Source: Escherichia phage kaaroe
Strand: one strand, 5' to 3'
Length of the DNA stretch: 64,000 nucleotides
Sequence record: MN850574.1
Shown here: in pieces, positions 8,337 through 58,908 of the stretch
Layout: each line of letters begins with the position of its first letter
Position numbering within the stretch: position 1 is the stretch's first letter
Translations under genes and position numbers: made by a program
Notes under the pieces: model-generated
What the model was told of the DNA's origin: nothing
Database searches by the model: none
What the model saw: only the letters and a program-made list of their open reading frames with translations

Positions 8337-10445
8337 ATGAAAATGCATATTGATAATGAAGAAGTATTTGGCAGTGACTTGAGCGGTGCGGTTGATTTTT
8401 CACTGAAAGCAAGTAGCAAGGCTTTTATGGTGCTTTCTAAGAACACTTATCAATATTGTGAACGTGCTTGCGTCCGTGAGTATTCGTGCAATGCTACCGA
8501 CACTCACAAAGAAGCCGGAACCTTAGATCGTCCGTTTGATATTCATTTACCGACTGCAATCGAACCGTATTTTTCTGTGCGTGATTATGGTACTGGTATT
8601 CCGTCTAAGAAAGAATTAGAACAACTGTTTACGGTTTACTTTGAATCAACAAAAGACCAGACTAATGATTATATCGGATCTTTTGGTTTAGGTGCGAAAT
8701 CTGCTTATAGCTATACCGACACCTTTACAATCGTAAACTATTACAATGGTCGCGCTTATGGCTTTACGGCATTTGTGCAAAACTCTATGCCGAAAATGGT
8801 GCAGATTTTCGACGAACCGACCTATGAAGACAACGGTCTGAAAATCACTATTCCGGTGAAAGAAAAAGACATTCAGACATGGCATCGAGAAGCGCAATTT
8901 GTACTGCGTCATTTTGGGGAACACAAACCTAATATCAATGCAATCGAAATTAATTATTTCCCTAGCTTTGATAATTATTATGTGTGTAATGGGCGTGATA
9001 ACGATTCCTATGTAGTATATGCAATCATGGGTAAGATCCAGTATCCGATCCCGTATGAATATGTTCGCGGAACATGGTTAGAAGCTGTAAACCGCCAGCA
9101 CCAGACCATTTACATTAATTTTGAGTTGGGTGATCTGGACCTTATGCCATCGCGTGAAGAAGTTCACTTGTCAATTGAGACTAAAGCGAACATCGAAAAA
9201 CGCATTGCAGAAATCAATGAAATGATGTTGGAAAAGGTTAAAGAAAAGATCGCCAACATTAAAACAGAGCGTAAACTTGCGCAATTTATGAGCGAGTATT
9301 CATCGACTCAACGCAATATTATTAGCAAGATGGGTAAGATCGGACAATGGGACGATCCGGTAGCAATCTATAATAAGTTTGTTAATGCGGGTAAAGATTC
9401 GCCTAATGACGTAGAAGGTCAGGTGTATACTCTGTATCGTACTCGTCACACAATAAGTAAATTGCGCCCTGCTTTCGTTAGCAGTCAATACAACATTACG
9501 CATTTTGTATGGATGCATAAAGAAGATATTACGTGTCTTATTGATGATACCGATAAACCGAAACTGCGTGCACTGACTCTTAACGGCATGGTCCAGGAAT
9601 ACGGCATCAATAAAAAGGTACTGGTGTTCCGTCAGAAAAACGAAAAACATATGGAGACTTTCGAGTACATCAAACAGTATTATGATGATTCTGAAATGAC
9701 CGTGATTAAAGTGTCTGAGGCCGATGATCTGCGTGCTAAAGCAGTTAAACCGGAGAAGACCGAGCGTACACAACGTGAAGCGACTCCTAAGCTGCCTAAC
9801 GTGTATATCATGGAAAAGATTGGTGACAGTTGGCATAAAACCAGCCATCACATGAAAGCGGCAGAGATTCGCGAGTTATCAGGCTTGCACATGTTCCGCG
9901 TAGGTGATGCATTCGAAAGCCGTAGTCGTAAATCGATCCATAGTGAAAATACATTACACACGGCGCTTGACTACTTCGGGGTAACAAAGTATATTATTAC
10001 TCGAAACGAGACACAAAAATATCTCGTTGACGAACAATTGGAATGTGCGCTAGAATTTGTTCGCGGTAAGCTGGCTGGTCTGGCTAAGAAGGTTAAGACC
10101 AATCATCTGGGGTATGGCGAATATCTGGGTGTGATCACTATGTTGTTTCATGACGATGAACTAGAACGCTGTGTTCCAGAATTTATTGACAGACTGTACG
10201 GTCGTCATTATAATAAAGAGGTTTCCAAGTTACTCCTTCGTACTCGTTGGATTATGGACGCAGAAACTAAAAAGATTTGTGATGAAAAATTCACGGTAGC
10301 AAACGAACGAATTAAAGCAGTTTGTGCGAAGTTTAAAGAGAATAGCCCGTTACTGTATGATATTGTAGATAACTGGTATCGTATTCTGCATAATGACAAA
10401 CGCGCACAAGACTTTATGAAACTGGTTAAGAATGTTAAATTTTAA
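8337..10445 (+). CDS. rIIA: rIIA membrane-associated protein (GHKL ATPase-like)
   Basis: 702 aa (T4 rIIA ~725); N-terminal HATPase-like motifs (DYGTGIP, GSFGLGAKSAY); followed by rIIB. Confidence 0.85.
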   Translation: MKMHIDNEEVFGSDLSGAVDFSLKASSKAFMVLSKNTYQYCERACVREYSCNATDTHKEAGTLDRPFDIHLPTAIEPYFSVRDYGTGIPSKKELEQLFTVYFESTKDQTNDYIGSFGLGAKSAYSYTDTFTIVNYYNGRAYGFTAFVQNSMPKMVQIFDEPTYEDNGLKITIPVKEKDIQTWHREAQFVLRHFGEHKPNINAIEINYFPSFDNYYVCNGRDNDSYVVYAIMGKIQYPIPYEYVRGTWLEAVNRQHQTIYINFELGDLDLMPSREEVHLSIETKANIEKRIAEINEMMLEKVKEKIANIKTERKLAQFMSEYSSTQRNIISKMGKIGQWDDPVAIYNKFVNAGKDSPNDVEGQVYTLYRTRHTISKLRPAFVSSQYNITHFVWMHKEDITCLIDDTDKPKLRALTLNGMVQEYGINKKVLVFRQKNEKHMETFEYIKQYYDDSEMTVIKVSEADDLRAKAVKPEKTERTQREATPKLPNVYIMEKIGDSWHKTSHHMKAAEIRELSGLHMFRVGDAFESRSRKSIHSENTLHTALDYFGVTKYIITRNETQKYLVDEQLECALEFVRGKLAGLAKKVKTNHLGYGEYLGVITMLFHDDELERCVPEFIDRLYGRHYNKEVSKLLLRTRWIMDAETKKICDEKFTVANERIKAVCAKFKENSPLLYDIVDNWYRILHNDKRAQDFMKLVKNVKF

Positions 10446-18356: not shown

Positions 18357-18689
18357 ATGTTTAACTATGACAAATATGAATCATGGAAAGCGACCGAATT
18401 GAAAGAGGCAGCGCGGTTAATCACACCGCGTCTTTATCCGGTGTTGTTTAGCGCAGATAAAGTAACAAGGGAAGTAAACGAGGCGCTATCGGTTTTAGGC
18501 TATCTGATCGATAAAGTAGAGAAAACATCGGTATTCACAAATAGCGTAGAATATACCCGGTATCGAGTGTTTTTAGATTCCTTGCTCGTTGTCATTAAGG
18601 CACTAAATGATCATAACTACACCATGAACATGACGAAAATAATCGACGAAGCAAGAATTATGACAGAGAATATTTTCGGTAAATTTTGA
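18357..18689 (+). CDS. hypothetical protein (paralog of 18804-19127)
   Basis: Shares EVN.A.., AR...EN.(F/Y)GKF C-terminal motifs with the next-but-one ORF. Confidence 0.5.
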   Translation: MFNYDKYESWKATELKEAARLITPRLYPVLFSADKVTREVNEALSVLGYLIDKVEKTSVFTNSVEYTRYRVFLDSLLVVIKALNDHNYTMNMTKIIDEARIMTENIFGKF

Positions 18690-18803: not shown

Positions 18804-19127
18804 ATGATCGAGTTTGAAATTGACAACTTTCACGAAAAAGCAGAAGACCTAACCAAAATTTTGATTAGTCGAGGTGCATATAATACGAAAGATATTATAA
18901 AAGAAGTTAATGTAGCGATGGACGCGATCCGAAAGGAATTTAAACATATTTCAGCGATTGGAGAAAATGGTCATCTTGAAGATGTTGAGCTGGTAGCACT
19001 GCGACGCTATTACTTCTTTGTTGATTGCATCATTGATCTAGCTAAAAATTATAGTCATTACATGAAAGATATTGTAAAAGATGCACGTAAGCTGGCAGAG
19101 AATGTTTACGGGAAGTTTCCAGAATGA
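18804..19127 (+). CDS. hypothetical protein (paralog of 18357-18689)
   Basis: ATG 18804 after SD GAGAGGTG; similar length and C-terminal motif. Confidence 0.5.
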   Translation: MIEFEIDNFHEKAEDLTKILISRGAYNTKDIIKEVNVAMDAIRKEFKHISAIGENGHLEDVELVALRRYYFFVDCIIDLAKNYSHYMKDIVKDARKLAENVYGKFPE

Positions 19128-26076: not shown

Positions 26077-29000
26077 TTAGTCTTCCCAGATAAAGTCTAC
26101 GGTACGAGTCAGATTATTGGCGATGATTTTAACATTACCAACTTTGATCCAATCACGAACCGTCATAGAGTTCATTAAACCACCTTCTGCAACTACTGCC
26201 CCGATTTCCTGAGCGGTAGGCTTATTCTGTTTGGTGTAAATTTCACCCCATGCTGTCCATTGACCACCAGTACCGGAACGGATATAATGTTTATGAGTAC
26301 CATCAGGGGACCAAAGCTGGGTAAGCCCGTCCGCGTCAGTACCCCATTGCATCAGAGTACCGTTTTTCTTCTCTGGATAAGTTTCTTTGATGTTCTGGGT
26401 AGTAACTCGCATATTCCAGAAACCGATGTTACCGATTGCCGGAGCGGTTGCCGCGCTAGCTTCATGCTTAACAGAAACAATAGGCGCATTATCCATAGTC
26501 AGCTTACCGACCATTGTATCGCCAGCATTCTTAACAAACTGACGGTTAAGAACTTCGTCGGCGTTTCCTGCGTGTACGATCTGATATTTCTGTCCGGCGA
26601 TCTCTGTAGTTAACGTTTGATGACCTGCCTTGATGTTAACACTTCCACCGTGACCGATATTCAGCATACCATCTGAGGAACGAGTCATTGCCGGATTAGA
26701 CTGGTCAACTATGTATAAACCGCCTTGTTTCGCATACAGGTTACGACCTGCAATAAAGTCTCTATATGCTGTCGCGTCGCCATTGTGTTTCATAGCAAAG
26801 GCGTAATGCTCAACGACTCCACCATCATTGATTTTACCGAAAGCGATAGCATCACTATCAACAACTTGCGCTGTTCCAGTACCACCAACGATAATAGACC
26901 AAGAGTTTTTCATGCCTTCCGATGCGGTTGTGCCATGCAGAGTAATTCCGGTGTGACCGTCAACTCCACGCTCACCCAACACCAGATGACCATTACTCGG
27001 AACATCGGTCGAGTTCTTAGTCACAGACAGAGTTTCAAAGGAACCTGATTTTAAGCACTCTAAATCGCCCTTCACGTTAACGTTTTTATTAAACGTGTAA
27101 TTGCTCTCTATGGTCTGATCAATGTCTCTACGCGCCCATTTAGCGGCCTCTACGTTACCCAATTTCAAACTATTCTGAGCGGTTGCCATCTTAGGTAAGA
27201 AATTAGCAAGTGCGTAGTTTAATCCTTTAGGGGTAACAGCAATTCCGTCATGCTGGTAGTTTCCTAGTTCTTGAGTAGAACCTTGCAGATTATCACCAAC
27301 AAAACAGTTTTCCTGAGTAGCAACTTTCAAGAAGCCACGACGCGCTTCGGTTGCTTTCCATGTATCCTCTGTCTGAACAACATATTTGAAGTTCTTCGGA
27401 GAAATTGCTACATTGTCCATAATACCAGCCACGGTTTCGGCTTGAGTACCAACTCGGATAATACCTTCTTTACCTTCGGTGGCCTTTTTGCCTTGCAGCT
27501 TTTTAGGCGTGATGATTGTAGTATCATCTTGACCAGCGTCAGTAAGCTGAGTAGTCGCAACTTTAGCGACACCTTTTGTATCTTCGGTTGCATCCAGACC
27601 GCTGATCATGATACCTTGCCACAAATCACCAGTAAGGTTAAGCCCCTGAGTCGGATCTACTTTCAAACGCTGTGCATTCTCAAAGAAGGTTTTAATCTTC
27701 AATGGGGTAGAAATGCGATCATCGTCACGACCTGCGTCAAATTCCGGCTGAGTTGCAATTTCTGCTAAACCGTGTAAAGTTTCCGTTGCGCGGCGAGTAT
27801 GCAACTTTTTAGGCGTGATGATATGGTTATCACTTTGACCTAAGTTTGTTTCTTCCTGAGTTGCAATTTCAGCGATACCAGTGCGCGATTCGGTAGCAGT
27901 ACGTTTCGTTAGCGTGCGAGTCGTGATGAGTAAAGCATCTTGCTGGGTTGATTCTGTAGCCCCTTGCACTTCCGCGTCAGTTGCCAGATAGCCAACACCA
28001 CGGGAAGTTTCGGTCGCCTTGACTTCGTTGATGTTTTTTGGCGTAACAATTTTAGCATGGTCATTGATGTTATAGATCCCTGTACCAGCTTCGCCACGTC
28101 GAGCGGCAGCACTGCCGCCAGCCTGAACAATTTCAGCAATACCAGCGAGATCTTCGGAAGCGCGACGTTCTTCTAATTTCTTAGGAGTAATAGCGCGGGT
28201 ATCGTCTAAACCTTCATTGGTTTCGTGCTGGGTTGCAATTTCCATCACACCACGACGGGCTTCGGTAGCAACACAGTCATTTAACTTTTTAGGCGTAACG
28301 ATAACATCATCCAGGAAGTTGGAACCAGTATCTTGATGCGTTTCCGCTTGAGTCGCAATGCGAGCAATACCGCGTCGAGTTTCGTTGGCGGTTTTATTAG
28401 CCAGCATTTTTGGTGTTACTGCAACTTCGTCGCTAGGATTCTCTTCATGGTTTTTATTCGTTTCAGTTTGGGTAGCCAGTGCAATTACACCAACACGATC
28501 TTTACGAGTCGGATCTACTCGTTCTACAATCGGGTGAGCATGTGCCACCAACCAGTATTTCTTACCATCATCACCTTCTGAATAAGAGAACTCCAGATAA
28601 GGTACATAATCATTTGCAGCGTTGAAAGACAATTCAGATACTCCCGTCCATGTATCGGTCCCATTGAATGGGTACTCGCTACGCTTAGGAAACTGAACCA
28701 TGTTTTTCTGCATAAGGATTTTTGTATCCTCTGTGGCGGTGATAATACGGCAATTCTGGTTTCCGTTCATATACTGCATAGAAACTTGAATACGATCACC
28801 CGGCTCGACATTGGTCGGCAGCGTCAGAGTAACATCACGACCACCAAATACAGCAACATAGCTATTAGGTTGCAAGCGAGTGTCATCGATGATCGGTTTA
28901 AGACGAACAGACTGATCACCATCCCACAAACGCCATAAGTTTTCCGTCTTGTCAAAGATGAATACACCATGACCGCTACGCTTACCGATAATCTCTTTTA

Positions 29001-50520: not shown

Positions 50521-50989
50521 TAATGAAGGGGCGAAAGCCCCTAAACCTAAAAAATTGTCAAAGAAAGAGCAACGCCAGATCCTGAAAATGAAATATGGTG
50601 GACGTTGTGCCTATTGTGGCGAGGAACTAGGGGATCGCTGGCACGCGGACCACATCAAACCAGTATTGCGACGCTCAAAGGTAGTCTATGATGAAAATGG
50701 ACGAATTGCCCGTAATGATGATGGATCATGGAAATATAAGGTTGTAGGAATGCATAAACCGGAGCATGATATACTTGATAACATGAATCCGGCGTGTGTG
50801 CAATGCAATCTTTATAAAAGCTGTATGGGCTTAGAATACTGGCGTAAGTGTATACGCGAGAACTTCCAGAAGTACATTCAGCGCAATATGGGATTGCGAG
50901 CGGCTAAACGCTTTGGCTTGCTGTCAATCCACGACCAGCCAGTAGAATTTTATTTCGAAAAGTACGATCGCGAGCATCAAGAAAAATAA
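50513..50989 (+). CDS. HNH endonuclease
   Basis: CAYCGEEL...HADHIKPV...N...CVQCNLYK zinc-finger HNH motif; start overlaps ligase stop. Confidence 0.75.
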   Translation: MCDNEGAKAPKPKKLSKKEQRQILKMKYGGRCAYCGEELGDRWHADHIKPVLRRSKVVYDENGRIARNDDGSWKYKVVGMHKPEHDILDNMNPACVQCNLYKSCMGLEYWRKCIRENFQKYIQRNMGLRAAKRFGLLSIHDQPVEFYFEKYDREHQEK

Positions 50990-51002
50990 TTCAAAAAGTT
51001 GT

Positions 51003-51031
51003 TGACAGGGGATCGGTGATCCCCTATACTA
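51003..51031 (+). promoter_or_regulatory. early promoter cassette with palindromic spacer
   Basis: TTGACA-GGGGATCGGTGATCCCC-TATACT, conserved leader, ATG 51076. Confidence 0.65.
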
Positions 51032-51075
51032 CACACATCAAAACGAAACACACTTTCTTAAACGGAGAATCAAAA

Positions 51076-51387
51076 ATGAAATACATCGTAACGCTGCCAA
51101 TGATTGACTTCGACGGAACCATGAACACCCAGAAGACCATGAGCGCGGAGAACCAACTGAAAAACGCTACCCTGATTCGTGAAGTTCGCAAGGCACTGGC
51201 AAAAGAATTTAACACCAAAATTCATTCTGTAACTGGCGAACGTTTCGCGGATCATCTTGATATCAACATCAAACCAGTGCGCAACGGTGTTATCTCTGTA
51301 ACAACCAGCCGCCCACATGCTGACGCTGATAATCTGACCGCTCGCGCAGAAGATGTAATTATGACCGTTATCATGGAAAAACTTTAA
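51076..51387 (+). CDS. hypothetical protein
   Basis: GGAGAATCAAAA-ATG cassette. Confidence 0.55.
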   Translation: MKYIVTLPMIDFDGTMNTQKTMSAENQLKNATLIREVRKALAKEFNTKIHSVTGERFADHLDINIKPVRNGVISVTTSRPHADADNLTARAEDVIMTVIMEKL

Positions 51388-51395
51388 AAAAGTTG

Positions 51396-51424
51396 TTGAC
51401 AGGGGATCACCGATCCCCTATACT
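51396..51424 (+). promoter_or_regulatory. early promoter cassette with palindromic spacer
   Basis: TTGACA-GGGGATCACCGATCCCC-TATACT, ATG 51459. Confidence 0.65.
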
Positions 51425-51458
51425 ACACACATACCGAAACGAACTAGGAGAATCAATT

Positions 51459-51638
51459 ATGAACTTCAACGAAATCATCGCTAAAATCCGCTACAACGAA
51501 GAAACCATTGAACTGATGCAAAACAATATCACCAATGGCTATATGATTGCAGCGTCACAAGAAATCATTGATTTGACGGTAGCAGAAAATGCTCAGTTGA
51601 AACATCAACTTTCAACGGCTGGCGTGATTGTTATGTAA
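51459..51638 (+). CDS. hypothetical small protein (59 aa)
   Basis: Conserved leader/RBS then ATG 51459. Confidence 0.5.
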   Translation: MNFNEIIAKIRYNEETIELMQNNITNGYMIAASQEIIDLTVAENAQLKHQLSTAGVIVM

Positions 51639-51655: not shown

Positions 51656-51958
51656 ATGGCAAAAGTTCAGGTAGGTGAGGTCTTCAAAATGGAAGACCAC
51701 ACCGTGGAAGAGATGAAAGGCGCAGTATTGAAAGTAATTAATTCAATGTGGCGTAGTGTGCTTTACATCAACTTTATCGACGGTGATGTGTGGTGGGCTA
51801 GCGATAGCGATAAATGGGATATCAAGTTCTACAAAGGTCATACTCACTGGTTAGGATCAGAGGATGTTGTAGAAGTTCTTGCGGTTGATGTTATGCCAGG
51901 AGAGATCGAGAATCTTAGCGGAACAGCAAAAGAAGCATTGACACGCCATTTTGCGTAA
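51656..51958 (+). CDS. hypothetical protein, member of HxHW...AVDV paralog family
   Basis: GHTHWLGSEDVVEVLAVDV motif shared with four other ORFs (53007, 53709, 54034, 54731). Confidence 0.55.
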   Translation: MAKVQVGEVFKMEDHTVEEMKGAVLKVINSMWRSVLYINFIDGDVWWASDSDKWDIKFYKGHTHWLGSEDVVEVLAVDVMPGEIENLSGTAKEALTRHFA

Positions 51959-52222: not shown

Positions 52223-52516
52223 ATGGAACATACTAATTTGTTTGTAGCCGAACCTTTCGTTGAAGGCAATAAAAATCTGGCTAATACCGTTATTCTTTAT
52301 GAAGATTGGATCTTTTACATCGACGAGCATTTAGATGTATTTTGTCGCACAGATAAAAGTGACCAATTTCCAATTGAAAAAAATCGAACATCAAATCATT
52401 GGTACGGCGGGAATGACGAAACCGACCTAGCTATTGTTCTAGAATCAGGCGTAGAATCTGAACATGCCAATGAAGTGGCAGACAAATTTATGAAATACGC
52501 ATATAAAGCATTATAA
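52223..52516 (+). CDS. hypothetical protein
   Basis: SD GAGGAAAATACT then ATG 52223. Confidence 0.5.
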   Translation: MEHTNLFVAEPFVEGNKNLANTVILYEDWIFYIDEHLDVFCRTDKSDQFPIEKNRTSNHWYGGNDETDLAIVLESGVESEHANEVADKFMKYAYKAL

Positions 52517-52521
52517 AGTTG

Positions 52522-52550
52522 TTGACAGGGGATCGGTGATCCCCTATAAT
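52522..52550 (+). promoter_or_regulatory. early promoter cassette with palindromic spacer
   Basis: TTGACA-GGGGATCGGTGATCCCC-TATAAT, ATG 52583. Confidence 0.65.
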
Positions 52551-52582
52551 GCACACATACCAACGAGATAGGAGAATCAAAA

Positions 52583-52750
52583 ATGTTCCAGACTAAAGCA
52601 GAATGCGAAGCATACATTGTAGCAAACCACGGTGAAGACTACCTGAAATTCGATATCGTAGTAGCACAGAAGATCACCGGAATGGTTGCAAAATATCTGG
52701 GTGTTAAAGAAGGTTACTATCCGAGCAACGCACCGGAAATCAACAAATAA
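52583..52750 (+). CDS. hypothetical small protein (55 aa), near-identical paralog of 55863-56030
   Basis: MFQTKAECEAYIVANHGEDYLKFDIVVAQKITGMVAKYLGVKEGYYPSNAPEINK versus MFETKAACEAYIIETHGEDYLKFDIVVAQKIVGMVAKYLGVKEGYYPSNAPEINK. Confidence 0.55.
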   Translation: MFQTKAECEAYIVANHGEDYLKFDIVVAQKITGMVAKYLGVKEGYYPSNAPEINK

Positions 52751-52753
52751 TAG

Positions 52754-52782
52754 TTGACAATGATTAAAGGGAGTAGTAAGAT
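52754..52782 (+). promoter_or_regulatory. early promoter cassette
   Basis: TTGACA-17-TAAGAT with GGGAGTA/ TACTC remnant dyad, ATG 52815. Confidence 0.55.
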
Positions 52783-52814
52783 ACTCACATCAAGACAACA
52801 AACGGAGAATCAAA

Positions 52815-52994
52815 ATGAAAGCTATCGAAGTTCAGAAGTACATGGAACTCATCATTGAAGGTAAAGCACATACAGTATTGACTACCCACGTAGGATATGA
52901 TAAAAATGTGCATATGCTGGTAGACAATATCGGCTGGATGAAGTTTAACCCTAACGAGAACGTACAAGCTCAAGAAATGACCATCCCTTTCTAA
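52815..52994 (+). CDS. hypothetical small protein (59 aa)
   Basis: GGAGAATCAAA-ATG cassette. Confidence 0.5.
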   Translation: MKAIEVQKYMELIIEGKAHTVLTTHVGYDKNVHMLVDNIGWMKFNPNENVQAQEMTIPF

Positions 52995-53006
52995 GAGGAA
53001 TATATT

Positions 53007-53285
53007 ATGATGCGAATTACTGCAACGCTGGATAAGACACACAAAGAAAGATTTTTCGGTATGATCTTAAAAACGCCGATTTTCGATAATTACCTTTATG
53101 TTGACTATGAAGGTCACATTAGCTATAAATGTAAAAATGATATTCGTGATTCCTTTGGTGATAAATCACAAGCTGATATTCATGACCACTGGTGGAACCA
53201 TGACGAACCTTTACGAGTTATCGCAGTTGATGTAAAAACAACAAAAGAAGCTGATAAGGTAGTGAATGATTATGAGCAAATTTAA
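53007..53285 (+). CDS. hypothetical protein, HxHW...AVDV paralog family
   Basis: IHDHWWNHDEPLRVIAVDV motif. Confidence 0.55.
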   Translation: MMRITATLDKTHKERFFGMILKTPIFDNYLYVDYEGHISYKCKNDIRDSFGDKSQADIHDHWWNHDEPLRVIAVDVKTTKEADKVVNDYEQI

Positions 53286-53529
53286 AGAATACAAAGCATA
53301 TCAACAGATCCTGCGAGTATACGCACCAGAGTTCGCCGAAAAGATGATGGAAGATGCATCAAAATGCCCGTCCTTTTCTGGAAACAAAAACCATTATTCT
53401 ACTCGTATTGTATCATGGAAAGAAACATGTTACACTCAACAGTGGATAAACGTTTTCTCAAAAACAATTGGTTGGAATGGTGTTAATTATGGGTATTCAG
53501 AGTCAATTCAAAGATTATCGAGTGTATAA
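53266..53529 (+). CDS. hypothetical protein (paralog pair with 53489-53707)
   Basis: FKEYKAY...AEKMMEDASKCPSF...NK..IV.W shared with next ORF. Confidence 0.5.
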   Translation: MIMSKFKEYKAYQQILRVYAPEFAEKMMEDASKCPSFSGNKNHYSTRIVSWKETCYTQQWINVFSKTIGWNGVNYGYSESIQRLSSV

Positions 53530-53707
53530 AGAAATCTGTGCTGTATTTGATGAGAAAACAGCAGATAAAATGATGAAAGAAGCGTCACAATGTTCATCTT
53601 TTGTTGATAACAAAGATTTAAGAGTAAATGAGATCGTGTGCTGGAGCGACACGAAACATGAAATTGTATGGCGTACCGTGTACTATAGCCGCGACCGAGG
53701 ATTATAA
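53489..53707 (+). CDS. hypothetical protein (paralog pair with 53266-53529)
   Basis: FKDYRVY...ADKMMKEASQCSSF; ATG 53489 inferred from paralog alignment. Confidence 0.45.
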   Translation: MGIQSQFKDYRVYKEICAVFDEKTADKMMKEASQCSSFVDNKDLRVNEIVCWSDTKHEIVWRTVYYSRDRGL

Positions 53708-53708
53708 A

Positions 53709-54029
53709 ATGAAATTAACTAAAAAGATTTTCCCAGAATTGCGTAACTGTCTGTTACTGGTTACTGAATATAAACCTTATACGATCTATTTGTACGTTGA
53801 TGAAAATCTGAAAATCCGTTACTATGATTATACGTCTCCAGTGATGAAATCATTTGCTCACTCGATCGCAAATAACTGTATGAATCACAATCATTGGGTA
53901 TCAGAAACGGATGACGATGCGTCAGAAGTTGTAGTGGTTGCATGGAATCTATCACCAGCGGAAGCAGATCAAGCACGCATTAAGCATTATGCGAAAAACA
54001 ATTGGTTTGACCTTATAAATGAGGACTAA
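53709..54029 (+). CDS. hypothetical protein, HxHW...AVDV paralog family
   Basis: MNHNHWVSETDDDASEVVVVAWNL motif variant. Confidence 0.5.
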   Translation: MKLTKKIFPELRNCLLLVTEYKPYTIYLYVDENLKIRYYDYTSPVMKSFAHSIANNCMNHNHWVSETDDDASEVVVVAWNLSPAEADQARIKHYAKNNWFDLINED

Positions 54030-54033
54030 TATT

Positions 54034-54312
54034 ATGTTCAAAGTAGGTGATAAGTTTATTCTTAGTCGTGATATTCTCCCTAATCTGAAAGGTTGTATCA
54101 TCAATCCTAGTAAAAATTCATGGTTTTATCTGTTTATCGATGATGATCTAAATGTACGCGCCGAATATAAAGAAGGTCTTCGTACTGGTCTTGGTTTCTT
54201 TCACGATCATGACCATAGCCATTGGCTAAACGGTGGATTCGAAGCAACGGTGATAGCGGTTGATGTGGATTACACAAACATCATAGAAAAATATCAAAAA
54301 ATTATTTTATAA
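54034..54312 (+). CDS. hypothetical protein, HxHW...AVDV paralog family
   Basis: HDHDHSHWLNGGFEATVIAVDV motif. Confidence 0.55.
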   Translation: MFKVGDKFILSRDILPNLKGCIINPSKNSWFYLFIDDDLNVRAEYKEGLRTGLGFFHDHDHSHWLNGGFEATVIAVDVDYTNIIEKYQKIIL

Positions 54313-54318
54313 AAAGTG

Positions 54319-54347
54319 TTGACATAAGATCGGGTGTATAGCATAAT
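54319..54347 (+). promoter_or_regulatory. early promoter cassette with dyad over -10
   Basis: TTGACA-17-CATAAT; perfect inverted repeat GGGTGTAT/ATACACCC brackets -10; ATG 54394. Confidence 0.6.
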
Positions 54348-54393
54348 ACACCCATCGAAACGAGATACACTTTCTAACTAGGAGAATCAAATT

Positions 54394-54681
54394 ATGGCAT
54401 ACATTACTATCACTCTGAAAGTTAACAAATTTGCTCACGCTGCACACGAAACCGATAATGCAATCCGTAACAACAAGTTCGCACGTCTGGTACGCGATGC
54501 AGTAGCTAAAGAGTTCAACTTCAAATTTGCAGATGGTAAAGTTATCACTAAATGGACTCATGACGGCGAAACTAAAGTAGAACTTGCTGACAACTTCGCA
54601 AATCAGGAATATGCACACCGTCGCATTAATGAAATCATCAGCGATGAACTCTACTACGGTGTACAGGAAGGACTGTTTTAA
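54394..54681 (+). CDS. hypothetical protein
   Basis: Conserved leader/RBS, followed by terminator. Confidence 0.55.
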   Translation: MAYITITLKVNKFAHAAHETDNAIRNNKFARLVRDAVAKEFNFKFADGKVITKWTHDGETKVELADNFANQEYAHRRINEIISDELYYGVQEGLF

Positions 54682-54684
54682 TAT

Positions 54685-54708
54685 ACGGGGCGTTAAGCCC
54701 CCTTTTCA
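54685..54708 (+). terminator. rho-independent terminator
   Basis: GGGGCGTTAAGCCCC hairpin followed by CTTTTCATC; same hairpin recurs at 58887. Confidence 0.65.
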
Positions 54709-54730
54709 TCCAACTATTGAGGATAATACT

Positions 54731-55039
54731 ATGAAAGATAATATCTTTGAATTTACCCGCGAAAATCTCCCAATGTTCCGAAAGTCTCTGCTTAAACTAG
54801 AGAACAGCAATTACGATGTATATTTTTACATCACCGAAGATCTAGAGATCCTTTACGCTGATTACCCAGGTCCGATCCGTACCTTCGAAGAAGCATCGCA
54901 GTATAAAAATGTTCACGGTCATGAGCACTGGTTACGAGAAAACCCAGGTCGCAAGAAAGCACGCGTTAAAGTGATTGCGATTGACGTAACACCAGCATAC
55001 GCCGACCGGATTGCACTGAATGATTATTTGTCTAAATGA
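54731..55039 (+). CDS. hypothetical protein, HxHW...AVDV paralog family
   Basis: HGHEHWLRENPGRKKARVKVIAIDV motif. Confidence 0.55.
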   Translation: MKDNIFEFTRENLPMFRKSLLKLENSNYDVYFYITEDLEILYADYPGPIRTFEEASQYKNVHGHEHWLRENPGRKKARVKVIAIDVTPAYADRIALNDYLSK

Positions 55040-55047
55040 TTTTATTA

Positions 55048-55075
55048 GCCGACCTTAGCGTCGGCTTTTTTATTG
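55048..55075 (+). terminator. rho-independent terminator
   Basis: AGCCGACC-TTAG-CGTCGGCT followed by TTTTTTATT. Confidence 0.75.
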
Positions 55076-55095
55076 CATAAAATTAAAAAAAAGAA

Positions 55096-55124
55096 TTGAC
55101 ACCAGATCACGCCTATAGCATAAT
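55096..55124 (+). promoter_or_regulatory. early promoter cassette
   Basis: TTGACA-17-CATAAT, leader ACACCCATCGAAACGAG.., ATG 55165. Confidence 0.6.
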
Positions 55125-55164
55125 ACACCCATCGAAACGAGATACCACTTAGGAGAATCAAACA

Positions 55165-55434
55165 ATGGCACTGACTAAAACCACTACCAACTTTGCAAAA
55201 CGTCACGGCTTCGACATTGAAATCAATAGCTTTAACGATTACACTCTTCTGTGTGTATATGAAATCGAAAATGATTGCGAGTGGATGTTCAGCTATCGCG
55301 TAAACGAAGACGGATCTTTCACTTGGAACGGAAATATCTATCTTGCACAGGAAGTAAAAGAAGAACTTCCGGCGAATATCAAAGATGAGAAACATTTACG
55401 TCAAGTTTTAAAATTTATTTCTGAAAATATCTAA
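55165..55434 (+). CDS. hypothetical protein
   Basis: AGGAGAATCAAACA-ATG cassette. Confidence 0.55.
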   Translation: MALTKTTTNFAKRHGFDIEINSFNDYTLLCVYEIENDCEWMFSYRVNEDGSFTWNGNIYLAQEVKEELPANIKDEKHLRQVLKFISENI

Positions 55435-55442
55435 AAAAGTTG

Positions 55443-55471
55443 TTGACACCAAAGTAAGAACATAGCATAAT
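55443..55471 (+). promoter_or_regulatory. early promoter cassette
   Basis: TTGACA-17-CATAAT, ATG 55505. Confidence 0.6.
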
Positions 55472-55504
55472 ACACCCATACCGAAACGAACTGGAGAATC
55501 AAAA

Positions 55505-55786
55505 ATGAAATTCATCAAAGCAACCGAAATCCTGAAAAACAAAGAAGCATACATCGGAAACATCGTTGGTATGAACATTCGCGGCGCTGGTAGCCAGTGG
55601 ACCAAACTGGTTGATGTTAAAGCTAAAGGCGATAAAATTGAGTTCACTGTAAAAATGCTTACTCATAACGCACATATGGGTATCAAGACAAAAACGATGG
55701 CAGCAGATAAAAGCATTAACTATCAGGGTCTGGGTGATTGGCTGAACTGGTGCAAAATGCACAATATCGAAACTAATCACGAATAA
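55505..55786 (+). CDS. hypothetical protein
   Basis: Conserved leader/RBS. Confidence 0.55.
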   Translation: MKFIKATEILKNKEAYIGNIVGMNIRGAGSQWTKLVDVKAKGDKIEFTVKMLTHNAHMGIKTKTMAADKSINYQGLGDWLNWCKMHNIETNHE

Positions 55787-55800
55787 TTTTAAAAAAGTTG

Positions 55801-55829
55801 TTGACGGGGATCGGGAGATCCCCTATAAT
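55801..55829 (+). promoter_or_regulatory. early promoter cassette with palindromic spacer
   Basis: TTGACG-GGGATCGGGAGATCCCC-TATAAT, ATG 55863. Confidence 0.65.
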
Positions 55830-55862
55830 ACACACATAACGAAACGAAATAGGAGAATCAAA

Positions 55863-56030
55863 ATGTTCGAGACTAAAGCAGCATGTGAAGCATATATCAT
55901 TGAAACCCACGGCGAAGATTATCTGAAATTTGACATTGTAGTAGCACAGAAGATTGTAGGGATGGTTGCAAAATATCTGGGTGTTAAAGAAGGTTACTAT
56001 CCGAGCAACGCACCAGAAATTAACAAATAA
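55863..56030 (+). CDS. hypothetical small protein (55 aa), near-identical paralog of 52583-52750
   Basis: See 52583 entry; about 90 percent identical at protein level by eye. Confidence 0.55.
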   Translation: MFETKAACEAYIIETHGEDYLKFDIVVAQKIVGMVAKYLGVKEGYYPSNAPEINK

Positions 56031-56044
56031 TTTTATAAAAAGTA

Positions 56045-56073
56045 TTGACAGGGGAGGATAACTCCCCTACAAT
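56045..56073 (+). promoter_or_regulatory. early promoter cassette with palindromic spacer (operon 56114-58346)
   Basis: TTGACA-GGGGAGGATAACTCCCC-TACAAT, ATG 56114; no further promoter until 58355. Confidence 0.65.
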
Positions 56074-56113
56074 ACAACCATCAAGACGAGATACCACTTA
56101 GGAGAATCAAACA

Positions 56114-56365
56114 ATGGCTAACATCGAAACCGCAAAGAAAATCGCTAAAGACCTGAACGTTAAAGGCTTCCGTAAACTGAAATTACAGCGTGTACGCTAC
56201 ACCATCGGCAAACAGTGCTCTTTCATGAGCGAAGAAGTTGCTAACAGCCTCATTGATAACCTGATTGCGGCTGGCTGGGAAGTTGCGGATCTGAAAACTT
56301 GCCGCGAACTGGCTAACAAAGGTCTTTTAGATTCTGTTACTATCAAACCAATGGGGGCAGCGTGA
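56114..56365 (+). CDS. hypothetical protein (operon gene 1)
   Basis: Conserved leader/RBS. Confidence 0.55.
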   Translation: MANIETAKKIAKDLNVKGFRKLKLQRVRYTIGKQCSFMSEEVANSLIDNLIAAGWEVADLKTCRELANKGLLDSVTIKPMGAA

Positions 56366-56607
56366 AAAGAAAATTAATTAAACGCAATAAGGAATTTCTT
56401 AATAACTGCATTAAGGCCGCTAATGGTTGGCCTTTGTGCCTCTTCCTTTATGATTGGTATTCTAAACAATCAGTTGAGGAAACACGACACTATAAGAAGA
56501 TCAGAAAAGAATCATATACAAAACAAGGCCGCATTAACGGACTTTACTTAATGTGGCACGGCAAAGAACCTTCTAAAATCTGCGTTGGATTAAAGGGGCG
56601 TATATGA
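56362..56607 (+). CDS. hypothetical protein (operon gene 2, GTG start)
   Basis: GTGA overlap with upstream stop; ORF track 56362-56607. Confidence 0.45.
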   Translation: MKRKLIKRNKEFLNNCIKAANGWPLCLFLYDWYSKQSVEETRHYKKIRKESYTKQGRINGLYLMWHGKEPSKICVGLKGRI

Positions 56608-57320
56608 AACAAAAATTAATATTCTGTAACTTTGACGGATCGGGGATAATGGGGCTAGAATGGGCTAAAGCAGGTCATAAGGTGATCTGCTTTAATGCTG
56701 ACGATGGCGACCACGGCACATACAAAAAGTATAATACCAGATTTGAACACCCAAACATTACCTATGTAAACACATGGATTGATTTGAACTGGCTAGAAAG
56801 AGCAATGGACCTTGAATGGGGGAAACCGGATATTATCTTTGCATTCCCACCGTGCACCAATTTAGCTGTTAGTGGCGCTGCACACTTTGAACGAAAGAAA
56901 CGAGAACAAGGACCATTGATTCAAGTTCATGATGTAAGGGCAGCTAAAATAACCGCTTATTTGGGTGAATGGCTAGGAGTTCCCTACATGATAGAGAATC
57001 CTGTAAGCGTTATCTCTAGCATGTGGCGTAAGCCTGATTACATGTTCCACCCGTGGGAATATGGCGGTTATTTGCCGGAAGATGATAAACATCCTACTTT
57101 TCCTGAGTATATCGCCGCCCGTGATATGTACCCGAAAAAGACTTGCTTATGGACCGGACAAGGCTTTATAATGCCAGAAAAGAAACCGTTGCAGATTAAT
57201 AAAGGGTACAGTAAACAGCATTCTAAGCTAGGCGGGAAAGGAACGAAAACAAAGACTATCAGGTCACTTACCCCGCGAGGATTCGCAAAGGCAGTATTTG
57301 AAGCAAATAAGGATCTATGA
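56604..57320 (+). CDS. C5-cytosine-methyltransferase-like catalytic core protein (operon gene 3)
   Basis: Motif-I-like FDGSGIMG, motif-IV-like FPPCTNLAVSG, motif-VI-like IENPVS; 238 aa, no obvious target-recognition domain. Confidence 0.45.
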   Translation: MKQKLIFCNFDGSGIMGLEWAKAGHKVICFNADDGDHGTYKKYNTRFEHPNITYVNTWIDLNWLERAMDLEWGKPDIIFAFPPCTNLAVSGAAHFERKKREQGPLIQVHDVRAAKITAYLGEWLGVPYMIENPVSVISSMWRKPDYMFHPWEYGGYLPEDDKHPTFPEYIAARDMYPKKTCLWTGQGFIMPEKKPLQINKGYSKQHSKLGGKGTKTKTIRSLTPRGFAKAVFEANKDL

Positions 57321-57655: not shown

Positions 57656-57831
57656 TAACACCACAACTACACGGTAAAGAGATTTGCGATCTTACTTGGG
57701 AAGAGTTGGTCATGTATCGCGACACCTACAAATGGTTTGAATCCATGAAAGAATTTGTAGCAGCAGTACGAGAAGAAATGAGCATTCGCCAGTATGCGGA
57801 CGCATATATTGAAAAGGTAAGCACACTATGA
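57652..57831 (+). CDS. hypothetical small protein (59 aa, operon gene 5)
   Basis: ATGA overlaps at both ends; manually translated. Confidence 0.4.
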   Translation: MITPQLHGKEICDLTWEELVMYRDTYKWFESMKEFVAAVREEMSIRQYADAYIEKVSTL

Positions 57832-58346
57832 ACCGTTTAACGCCTAAACGCCGTTACTATACCAATACTAAAAACTTTGTCATCTCTGTTTATGAGGCGT
57901 GGTTAGAAGATGGCTTTATCAACATGAACCCAGATTATCAGCGTCCTTTGGTATGGGACACCGAAAACAAACGTATGTTTATCGAAAACCTGATTAATGA
58001 TTTTCCGGTTGGTGCTATCGCAATGGCTAAGATTGATGATGGCTCTCGCTATGAGATCGAAATCGTGGACGGTAAACAGCGTTTAAACGCAATATTCTCC
58101 TTCATGAAGGATGAGTTTAGCATTGCTGGTAATGATGATTCTATGTTGTATTACAGTGATTTTACGCCAGCAGAAAAGCGACGTTTCCGAAATCTCGGAC
58201 TACCCGCGATCATGATGGAAGAGAGCACACGAGAAGACCGATTAGAGTATTTCTACAAAACAAACTTTTTCGGTGTGCCTCAATCGGAAGAACATCGCCA
58301 GCATGTGATTGCCCTATTGCAAGATGAGCAATTAAAAAATAACTAA
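57828..58346 (+). CDS. DUF262/ParB-like nuclease-domain protein (operon gene 6)
   Basis: NPDYQRPLVW and IVDGKQRLNAIF (DGQQR-type) motifs typical of DUF262, the GmrSD N-terminal domain. Confidence 0.6.
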   Translation: MNRLTPKRRYYTNTKNFVISVYEAWLEDGFINMNPDYQRPLVWDTENKRMFIENLINDFPVGAIAMAKIDDGSRYEIEIVDGKQRLNAIFSFMKDEFSIAGNDDSMLYYSDFTPAEKRRFRNLGLPAIMMEESTREDRLEYFYKTNFFGVPQSEEHRQHVIALLQDEQLKNN

Positions 58347-58354
58347 AAAAGTTG

Positions 58355-58383
58355 TTGACAGGGGATCATCGATCCCCTATAAT
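58355..58383 (+). promoter_or_regulatory. early promoter cassette with palindromic spacer
   Basis: TTGACA-GGGGATCATCGATCCCC-TATAAT, ATG 58418. Confidence 0.65.
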
Positions 58384-58417
58384 ACACACATACCGAAACG
58401 AACTAGGAGAATCAAAC

Positions 58418-58597
58418 ATGAAACACTTAACCATCGAATCGGCAATCATCGCAATCGCTAAAGTTCAAGCGGCTTATAATTGCACTGACATTGAAGCCAT
58501 TTCAAAAATGCAAGCAGAAGCAGCAAAAGCGGGTGACGAGAAATCTTTAGATGTTCTCTGCGAAATCAAAGCAGAATTGATTTCAAAAATGTTCTAA
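58418..58597 (+). CDS. hypothetical small protein (59 aa)
   Basis: Conserved leader/RBS. Confidence 0.5.
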   Translation: MKHLTIESAIIAIAKVQAAYNCTDIEAISKMQAEAAKAGDEKSLDVLCEIKAELISKMF

Positions 58598-58885: not shown

Positions 58886-58908
58886 TGGGGGCGTTAAGCC
58901 CCTTTTTC
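58886..58908 (+). terminator. rho-independent terminator
   Basis: GGGGCGTTAAGCCCC hairpin followed by TTTTTCAT. Confidence 0.7.

Follow-up and report, generated by a model that had tools for sequence, protein, structure and literature searches.

The 64,000-nucleotide (nt) stretch of the genome of Escherichia phage kaaroe analysed here (sequence record MN850574.1), hereafter the window, carries two closely similar copies of a small, putatively early gene, each with its own promoter cassette. The region is 95 to 98% identical to genomes of the genus Krischvirus, the RB49-like T4-type coliphages of the Straboviridae, and positions 52300 to 56300 are occupied by a dense series of small open reading frames (ORFs) on the plus strand. 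Both of the 55-amino-acid (aa) ORFs that a preliminary description had recognised in this series are present on that strand (Table 1) and are referred to here as copy A and copy B. Copy A corresponds to RB49 ORF205 (RB49p205) and copy B to RB49 ORF191 (RB49p191), and the same orthology holds for phage Phi1.

The two predicted proteins are identical at 49 of 55 residues in a gapless alignment (89%; BLASTP E=1e-37), so the count of about six differences previously made by eye proved correct. Their coding sequences (CDSs) share 146 of 168 nt (86.9%), and the codon differences divide into 13 synonymous and 6 non-synonymous ones. When the upstream cassette is masked, the CDSs are still 87% identical, which is not the level of identity seen between unrelated ORFs. 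Apart from the promoter cassettes, the 64-kb window has a single long dispersed direct repeat, which is formed by the segments 52580-52751 and 55860-56031 (87% identity, spacing 3280 nt).

Each copy is preceded by a cassette of the promoter-early stem-loop (PeSL) type, of which the genomes of RB49 and Phi1 hold about 50 each (Arbiol et al. 2010, PMC2839356). According to the definition given in that study, a PeSL motif comprises an AT-rich sequence with an upstream stop codon, sigma-70 boxes, a polyG/polyC hairpin that is mostly located between the -35 box and the -10 box, and a Shine-Dalgarno (SD) sequence followed by the ATG of an ORFan. Cassettes A and B possess every one of these sequence features. 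They start with an AT-rich stretch that includes the upstream stop codon (TAAAGCATTATAAAGTTG... in A, GAATAATTTTAAAAAAGTTG... in B). Cassette A continues with the -35 box TTGACA (52522-52527), the hairpin GGGGATC-GGT-GATCCCC (52528-52544), the -10 box TATAAT (52545-52550), the leader ACACATACCAACGAGATA and the SD sequence GGAGAATCAAA at 52571-52581. In cassette B, the hairpin GGGGATC-GGGA-GATCCCC is found at 55806-55823, with its first G inside the -35 hexamer, and the leader ACACATAACGAAACGAAATA is followed by the same SD sequence at 55852-55862; the SD sequence ends 1 to 2 nt ahead of the ATG in both copies. The preliminary description had credited each copy with a palindromic-spacer promoter of its own, and this is borne out: promoter A (TTGACA-17-TATAAT, 52522-52550) matches the consensus at 12 of 12 positions and promoter B (TTGACG-17-TATAAT, 55801-55829) at 11 of 12, with GGGGATC...GATCCCC placed in the 17-bp spacer. 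The strict sigma-70 promoter pattern occurs 13 times in the window (0.24 expected). The hairpins, with their 7-bp G+C-rich stem GGGGATC/GATCCCC, have minimum free energies of -14.1 (A) and -14.9 kcal/mol (B), corresponding to z values of -2.7 and -2.8. Neither is followed by a T-run, and a terminator scan calls neither of them on the plus strand; a function of the stem-loop as transcription terminator or attenuator has been published for PeSL211/210 only (PMC2839356). Cassette A is almost identical to its RB49 ortholog PeSL206/205, from which it differs by a 2-nt TA indel, and this RB49 element, when fused to lacZ, yielded about 13,000 Miller units, which makes it a very strong promoter (PMC2839356).

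Table 1. Features of the 55-aa gene pair and of the associated PeSL cassettes in the window
Feature	Coordinates	Strand	Description
Copy A	52583..52750	+	55-aa ORFan; ortholog of RB49 ORF205; PHROG 8009
Copy B	55863..56030	+	55-aa ORFan; ortholog of RB49 ORF191; PHROG 8009; A-type bases in CDS 108-141
Interval between the two units	52751..55789	+	~3.0 kb; 11 small ORFs homologous to RB49 ORF204-193
PeSL cassette of copy A	52509..52582	+	Ortholog of RB49/Phi1 PeSL206/205; AT-rich stretch including upstream stop codon
PeSL cassette of copy B	55790..55862	+	-35 TTGACG 55801-55806; -10 TATAAT 55824-55829
Different-class PeSL cassette	52754..52814	+	Starts 3 nt past copy A stop; right end of A unit
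PeSL cassette 3' of copy B	56032..56113	+	TTGACA at 56045; hairpin GGGGAG-GATAA-CTCCCC; -10 TACAAT
Same-class PeSL cassette	51385..51463	+	Precedes unrelated gene
Same-class PeSL cassette	58344..58422	+	Precedes another unrelated gene; 94-95% identical to cassette at 51385
Fifth class-1 PeSL cassette	50989..51051	+	Hairpin GGGGATCGGTGATCCCC identical to that of cassette A

The upstream cassettes had been described as nearly identical, and they do agree at 58 of 67 positions between the -35 box and the ATG (87%). This likeness is a property of the cassette family and not of the A/B pair. A stretch of 7.6 kb holds five members of this class (at 50991, 51396, 52522 for A, 55801 for B, and 58355), and the identities to the cassette at 58355 are 86% for A, 88% for B and 94% for the one at 51396, although neither of the genes that follow the cassettes at 51396 and 58355 is related to the 55-aa gene. 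Because members of the same class precede unrelated genes, the near-identical cassettes are unable to delimit the duplication, and cassette identity was rejected as a boundary. In the alignment of the two loci, the similarity of the pair begins in generic cassette sequence at AAAGTTGTTGAC, about 70 nt 5' of the ATG, and stops 1 base past the stop codon (TAAT); the cassettes that start there differ in class between the two loci. Since cassettes ahead of unrelated genes are no less similar, the CDS is the sole pair-specific homology of the A and B units. The cassette to the right of copy A, a member of repeat family D4, has a partly degenerate hairpin over its -10 region and precedes the ORF204 homolog (52815-52994), and the one to the right of copy B precedes the ORF190 homolog (56114-56365). 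In the window as a whole, repeat families D1-D6 and D9 account for at least 20 cassette sites, which are clustered at about 7.6, 15-16, 40-43 and 51-58.6 kb and have genes of PHROGs of unknown function on their 3' side. It should be noted that two ORF calls (51393-51638 and 58352-58597, plus strand) begin at the TTG of a -35 box; their spurious shared N-termini (MLTGDHRSPI.HTYRNELGES) are a translated PeSL cassette, the true start being the ATG past the SD sequence, and the same artefact is present in the database protein P0004.

To date the duplication, we compared 12 genomes aligned base by base; seven of them contributed a copy A and a copy B each, and five single-copy genomes contributed their one copy. 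By the Nei-Gojobori method, the synonymous divergence (dS) between copies A and B is 0.67 in the window and 0.93 to 1.18 in the six other two-copy genomes, while the non-synonymous divergence (dN) is about 0.05, giving dN/dS ratios (omega) of 0.05 to 0.08. Orthologs are far closer to each other, with a mean identity of 97.7% (dS 0.11) among A copies and of 98.2% (dS 0.08) among B copies. A tblastn search of 50,697 phage records located the gene in 58 Krischvirus records at 109 places, corresponding by arithmetic to about 51 two-copy and 7 one-copy records; both copies are present in RB49, Phi1, JSE, GEC-3S and ECD7, and single copies with 44 to 68% identity were found in 12 siphovirus records. 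In a neighbour-joining tree rooted on the homolog from a Swiduovirus (siphovirus), the A copies form one clade (92% bootstrap) and the B copies another (98%), and A and B group together (86%) to the exclusion of the outgroup protein P0003, a 54-aa homolog discussed below. From the paralog dS, the genus-wide occurrence of the pair and the separate A and B clades, the duplication is therefore judged to be older than the genus radiation sampled here, with a synonymous divergence that is roughly tenfold greater, and the low omega values indicate that both copies have been retained under strong purifying selection. A recent segmental duplication should leave paralogs that are no more diverged than orthologs and a lineage-restricted distribution; what is found here is the opposite on both counts, and the earlier view of the duplication as recent is not supported.

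Part of the near-identity of the pair in the window has a different origin, namely a tract of A-type bases in copy B. Sequence exchange between the paralogs was assessed at the 26 sites at which the A and B consensus sequences differ. Copy B of the window carries A-type bases at CDS positions 108, 114, 117 and 120, and has G141 in common with its own copy A. The mismatches of the window pair are distributed unevenly, with 20 in nt 1-99 and 2 in nt 100-165 (binomial P=0.0016), and this pair is the most similar one among the seven genomes (86.9% versus 83.9 to 85.7%). Constraint as the sole cause of the low 3' divergence was rejected, as the other genomes differ at 5 to 7 sites in that part of the gene. 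The 3' third of copy B in the window thus looks like a lineage-specific exchange tract. Another candidate tract is found in phage Brandy, whose copy A contains six contiguous B-type sites (CDS 51-75; contiguity P ~9e-5) and which now lacks copy B.

The single-copy genomes record what recombination between the cassettes does at this locus. Phages Cognac and FL04 carry one 55-aa gene between the ORF206 and ORF190 homologs and lack one unit together with the interval, about 3.28 kb in all; this junction occurs in only 2 of 63 matching records, namely these two. The flanks of Cognac are nearest to those of the two-copy phage ECD7 (98.8% on the left, 98.6% on the right) and more distant from those of FL04 (93.0% and 97.1%). 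When compared with the units of ECD7, the single unit of Cognac is A-type in its -35 box, hairpin, -10 box and leader and B-type from the SD sequence on, with one B-type base in the -10 hexamer within the otherwise A-type part; in FL04, the switch from A to B lies earlier, in the hairpin loop. Cognac and FL04 are best read as two independent deletions through crossovers between cassettes A and B. Their layout was rejected as the ancestral one, given that the flanks nest with those of two-copy genomes and that the crossover points differ. In Brandy and UPWr_E1, copy B alone is missing, and the 193/190 junction is a chimeric PeSL with a 5' half from PeSL193/191 and a 3' half from PeSL191/190, the cassette on the right of copy B (Table 1) being the right-hand partner. 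MIZ4 has a larger deletion, likewise with a chimeric cassette. Among the genomes, cassette sub-elements assort independently, i.e., the loop (GGT/ACC/GGGA), the -10 box (TATAAT/TATACT) and the leader variant. Cassette-mediated recombination, to which the preliminary description had attributed the duplication, does act at this locus, as the chimeric junctions in Cognac, FL04, Brandy, UPWr_E1 and MIZ4 attest; for the original duplication, such a mechanism is what we infer. The removal of flanked ORFans by recombination between cassettes, which characterises the PeSL system, is what these junction sequences point to. The window itself lacks RB49 ORF192 (as does Phi1), ORF195, ORF196 and ORF196.1 (window 55786-55863 versus RB49 9709-10327), and this indel served Arbiol et al. 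as an illustration of PeSL-mediated excision (PMC2839356).

Relatives of the gene outside the genus offer a glimpse of its earlier surroundings. Protein P0003 (54 aa) is encoded on a 7.6-kb phage contig (L014; Logan SRR5584643), which is not T4-like because it carries a small terminase of phrog_57. On this contig (L014:5484-5926), the 54-aa homolog overlaps the 3' end of an ORF194-family gene (phrog_6147) with no cassette between the two, and a terminator and a promoter are located upstream; the ORF194-family gene is 43% identical to that at 55165-55434 of the window (E=3e-25). The ORF194 and 55-aa families thus overlap in L014 and are kept apart by PeSL cassettes in Krischvirus, where in the window one inserted cassette gene, the ORF193 homolog, separates copy B from the ORF194 homolog. 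P0003 has 45 residues in common with copy B and 42 with copy A. Because the neighbour order in L014 resembles that around copy B and P0003 is closer to B, copy B is probably at the ancestral position and copy A derived. In the siphoviruses swi2 (L012:3001-3358) and Sasha (L013:2992-3386), the homolog adjoins the terminase genes, and the next gene encodes a conserved partner of 68-70 aa ('...PKCLREIPK.K.KPR.QAIKEAKIEAFNIAISII...') that has no counterpart in the window. The neighbours of the swi2 and Sasha homologs have no homologs in the window either, and so there is no common multi-gene module.

The 55-aa protein belongs to a small family. PHROG 8009, a family of unknown function, is matched by both copies over their full length (residues 1-55 of 55; E=1.2e-38 and 6.8e-38); sequence searches of Pfam, PADLOC and the PDB gave no match, and the structural model has no fold match outside its own family. 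An exhaustive profile search of 1.84 billion representatives recovered three genuine clusters only. A word-indexed protein search returned five matches, two of which (the metagenome proteins P0004 and P0005) join an N-terminal part of copy A (40 aa and 22 aa, respectively) to unrelated sequence, in P0005 to a histidine-kinase ATPase domain (PF02518); these two proteins are probably assembly chimeras. The best of five AlphaFold models (predicted local distance difference test score, pLDDT, of 92.7; 52 to 72 in the other four runs) is predicted to be a small alpha/beta domain with helices at residues 5-16, 18-22 and 34-39 and strands at 28-31 and 44-47. Four of the six paralog-specific residues (7, 13, 14 and 15) are situated in the predicted helix 1, which hints at a specialisation of the A and B proteins. 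Considering the early sigma-70 promoter, the location in a hyperplastic region, the purifying selection and the spread of the family in unrelated coliphages and Salmonella phages, our working assumption is that the protein may be a small accessory protein for early host takeover or anti-defence.

Other paralogs exist in the early regions of the window, and the preliminary description had drawn on two such pairs in support of active gene amplification. The ORFs 53266-53529 and 53489-53707, which are tandem, overlapping and both assigned to phrog_8471, are 40% identical, and for 18357-18689 and 18804-19127 the identity is 37% across the 43 C-terminal residues (E=6e-8). A five-member family on the plus strand (51656-51958, 53007-53285, 53709-54029, 54034-54312 and 54731-55039; 92 to 106 aa) has pairwise identities of 21 to 25% and an invariant H-x-H-W...V-x-A motif ('HxHW...VIAVDV'), and four of its five members lie between copies A and B; the one member that was scanned against Pfam (54034-54309) had no match over the curated cutoff. 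Values of this kind speak for old duplications, and the claim of active amplification is not supported: judged by these identities, duplication has occurred repeatedly in the early regions, each time long ago.

Several further features of the window were noted along the way. Two hairpins that resemble intrinsic terminators, each with a T-run behind it, are located about 4.2 kb apart at 54687-54701 and 58887-58903 (plus strand). They are identical in their core GGGGCGTTAAGCCCC and seem to represent another, smaller kind of regulatory repeat. Just 3' of copy B, at 56604-57320 (plus strand), there is a homolog of the RB49 ORF189 DNA methyltransferase. Also 3' of copy B, the ORF at 57828-58346 (plus strand) encodes a 172-aa protein with a 'DGKQRL' motif, which may resemble DUF262/ParB-like nucleases. 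Direct repeats of 41 to 43 nt in families D8 and D11 (27494-28251; 63 to 80% identical, spaced 100 to 370 nt) suggest a gene with internal repeats.

We consider it likely that copies A and B are old paralogs on PeSL cassettes which were duplicated once in the stem lineage of the genus, have been kept since, and are still recombining; this reading accommodates what is observed of the paralogy and its age, of the selection on the copies, of the way the cassettes are built, and of the exchange tracts and the junctions left by deletions. A single duplication of a cassette-plus-ORF unit of about 235 bp would have taken place in the Krischvirus stem lineage, presumably by homologous recombination between PeSL cassettes, either through unequal exchange of concatemeric genomes or through re-insertion of a PeSL mini-circle. 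Since then, both copies have been under strong purifying selection and would be transcribed early by the host sigma-70 RNA polymerase, and we infer that the two proteins have a function. Recombination continues to act on the pair and on its cassettes, with patches exchanged between the copies and crossovers between cassettes removing either copy B or the 3.3-kb interval.

Several points weigh against this interpretation or narrow its base. The original duplication has left no diagnostic junction, and because the cassettes are too homogenised and mosaic, unequal crossing-over, mini-circle re-insertion and the acquisition of a relative's second allele are not separable. The direction from B to A draws on one outgroup contig and a difference of three residues, and the monophyly of A plus B on 150 nt with 86% bootstrap. 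The base-level comparison comprises 12 genomes, and the figure of 51 two-copy records out of 58 is arithmetic on tblastn places that counts duplicate GenBank and RefSeq records. Expression and function of both proteins are predicted from sequence, and the structure model is confident in one of five runs only.

Among other explanations, the one that deserves most attention holds that A and B are pseudo-paralogs, the second copy being a diverged allele brought in on a PeSL mini-circle or from a co-infecting relative. The resident cassette or gene would then have been the target of a Campbell-type insertion, and two diverged direct repeats would flank the imported block. Much about the system would suit such a course of events: mini-circles from this very region, including ORFs 191-194, exist and are encapsidated (PMC2839356), integration of a circle by homology automatically yields flanking direct repeats, the gene family moves among unrelated phages (Swiduovirus, Sashavirus and the L014 contig), and the cassettes are mosaics of sub-elements common to several genomes. 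We nevertheless regard this origin as rather unlikely, since A and B are mutually closest among all sequences found in the 1.84 billion representatives, no lineage is known that has an A-type gene alone at another locus, and the single-copy genomes are accounted for by deletions nested among two-copy relatives.

A recent duplication with ongoing amplification of early genes in this phage lineage, as originally proposed, would explain the 89% protein identity, the similar cassettes and the 3' 66 nt of the CDS with their two differing sites; it is very improbable in view of a paralog dS of 0.67 to 1.18 compared with about 0.1 for orthologs, the orthologous copies throughout the genus and the reciprocal monophyly of the A and B clades, and the close agreement at the 3' end is lineage-specific, as expected of an exchange tract, while the other pairs cited in its favour are only 37 to 40% identical. 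We give no credence to the idea that the likeness of the two loci consists of a shared promoter and ribosome-binding-site cassette plus a chance or compositional resemblance of unrelated short ORFs. It is true that 7.6 kb contain at least five cassettes of this class and that those preceding unrelated genes are no less alike, but the masked CDSs retain their 146 of 168 identical nt and 49 of 55 identical residues (E=1e-37), and both proteins match PHROG 8009 end to end (E ~1e-38). A more far-reaching extension of the old-paralog reading, in which the two genes would encode specialised early proteins that target two variants of a host or defence factor and the two units would act as 3.3-kb direct-repeat 'bookends', strikes us as unlikely. 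If it were true, 11 accessory genes and one 55-aa gene could leave as one mini-circle and move between co-infecting phages, and duplicating a cassette-borne gene would be a way to build larger mobile modules.

The system to which the locus belongs is already known, and the A/B pair is an ordinary example of PeSL gene shuffling as described for RB49 and Phi1 (PMC2839356; Comeau et al. 2014, PMC4122927), with the same genus, the same hyperplastic region, orthologous cassettes and matching anatomy. A mini-circle sequenced after inverse PCR held ORFs 191-194, and therefore the copy B ortholog, with its crossover located 3' of the -10 box and 5' of the ATG, and such circles are encapsidated (PMC2839356); the crossovers of the natural deletions mapped here likewise correspond to the published ones between the -10 box and the ATG. 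While the PeSL papers deal with insertions, deletions and replacements, a cassette-borne paralog pair that serves as a 3.3-kb direct repeat is added here. The main texts of PMC2839356 and PMC4122927 (their supplements not covered) make no mention of gene duplication, of the paralogy of ORF191 and ORF205 or of gene conversion, and no prior description of the paralogy is given by Nolan et al. 2006 either; a literature search on duplication in Krischvirus yielded nothing relevant. The minor additions of the present analysis are this paralogy, the patchy exchange and the role of the pair as a 3.3-kb direct repeat.

Parallels with other modes of gene mobility can be drawn as well. Like morons (Hendrix et al. 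2000) and integron cassettes, the 55-aa unit is one small accessory gene with its own promoter and a transcription stop, set between other genes, and its family is present in unrelated phages too. In contrast to morons, whose insertion is regarded as independent of conserved flanking sequence, the determinant of mobility here is the homology of the regulatory cassette, and whereas integrons require attC sites and an integrase, PeSL elements have no known recombinase dedicated to them (PMC2839356). The short contiguous tracts derived from the other paralog, and the deletion of the interval between direct repeats, recall concerted evolution and unequal crossing-over; however, the tracts are very short (25 to 50 bp) and homogenisation is far from complete, with a dS of about 1 over most of the length.

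The importance of the A/B pair is modest, as it opens no new question and reveals no new kind of element, and lies in its showing the published model of PeSL shuffling cleanly at work in natural genomes. One and the same cassette family promotes the loss of a single gene, the loss of 3.3 kb with 12 genes (twice and independently), and a patchy exchange between paralogs. What it adds on a small scale is that ORFans carried on such cassettes can undergo duplication and afterwards persist over long periods under purifying selection, and the long retention of both copies argues that the 55-aa early protein is useful to the phage.

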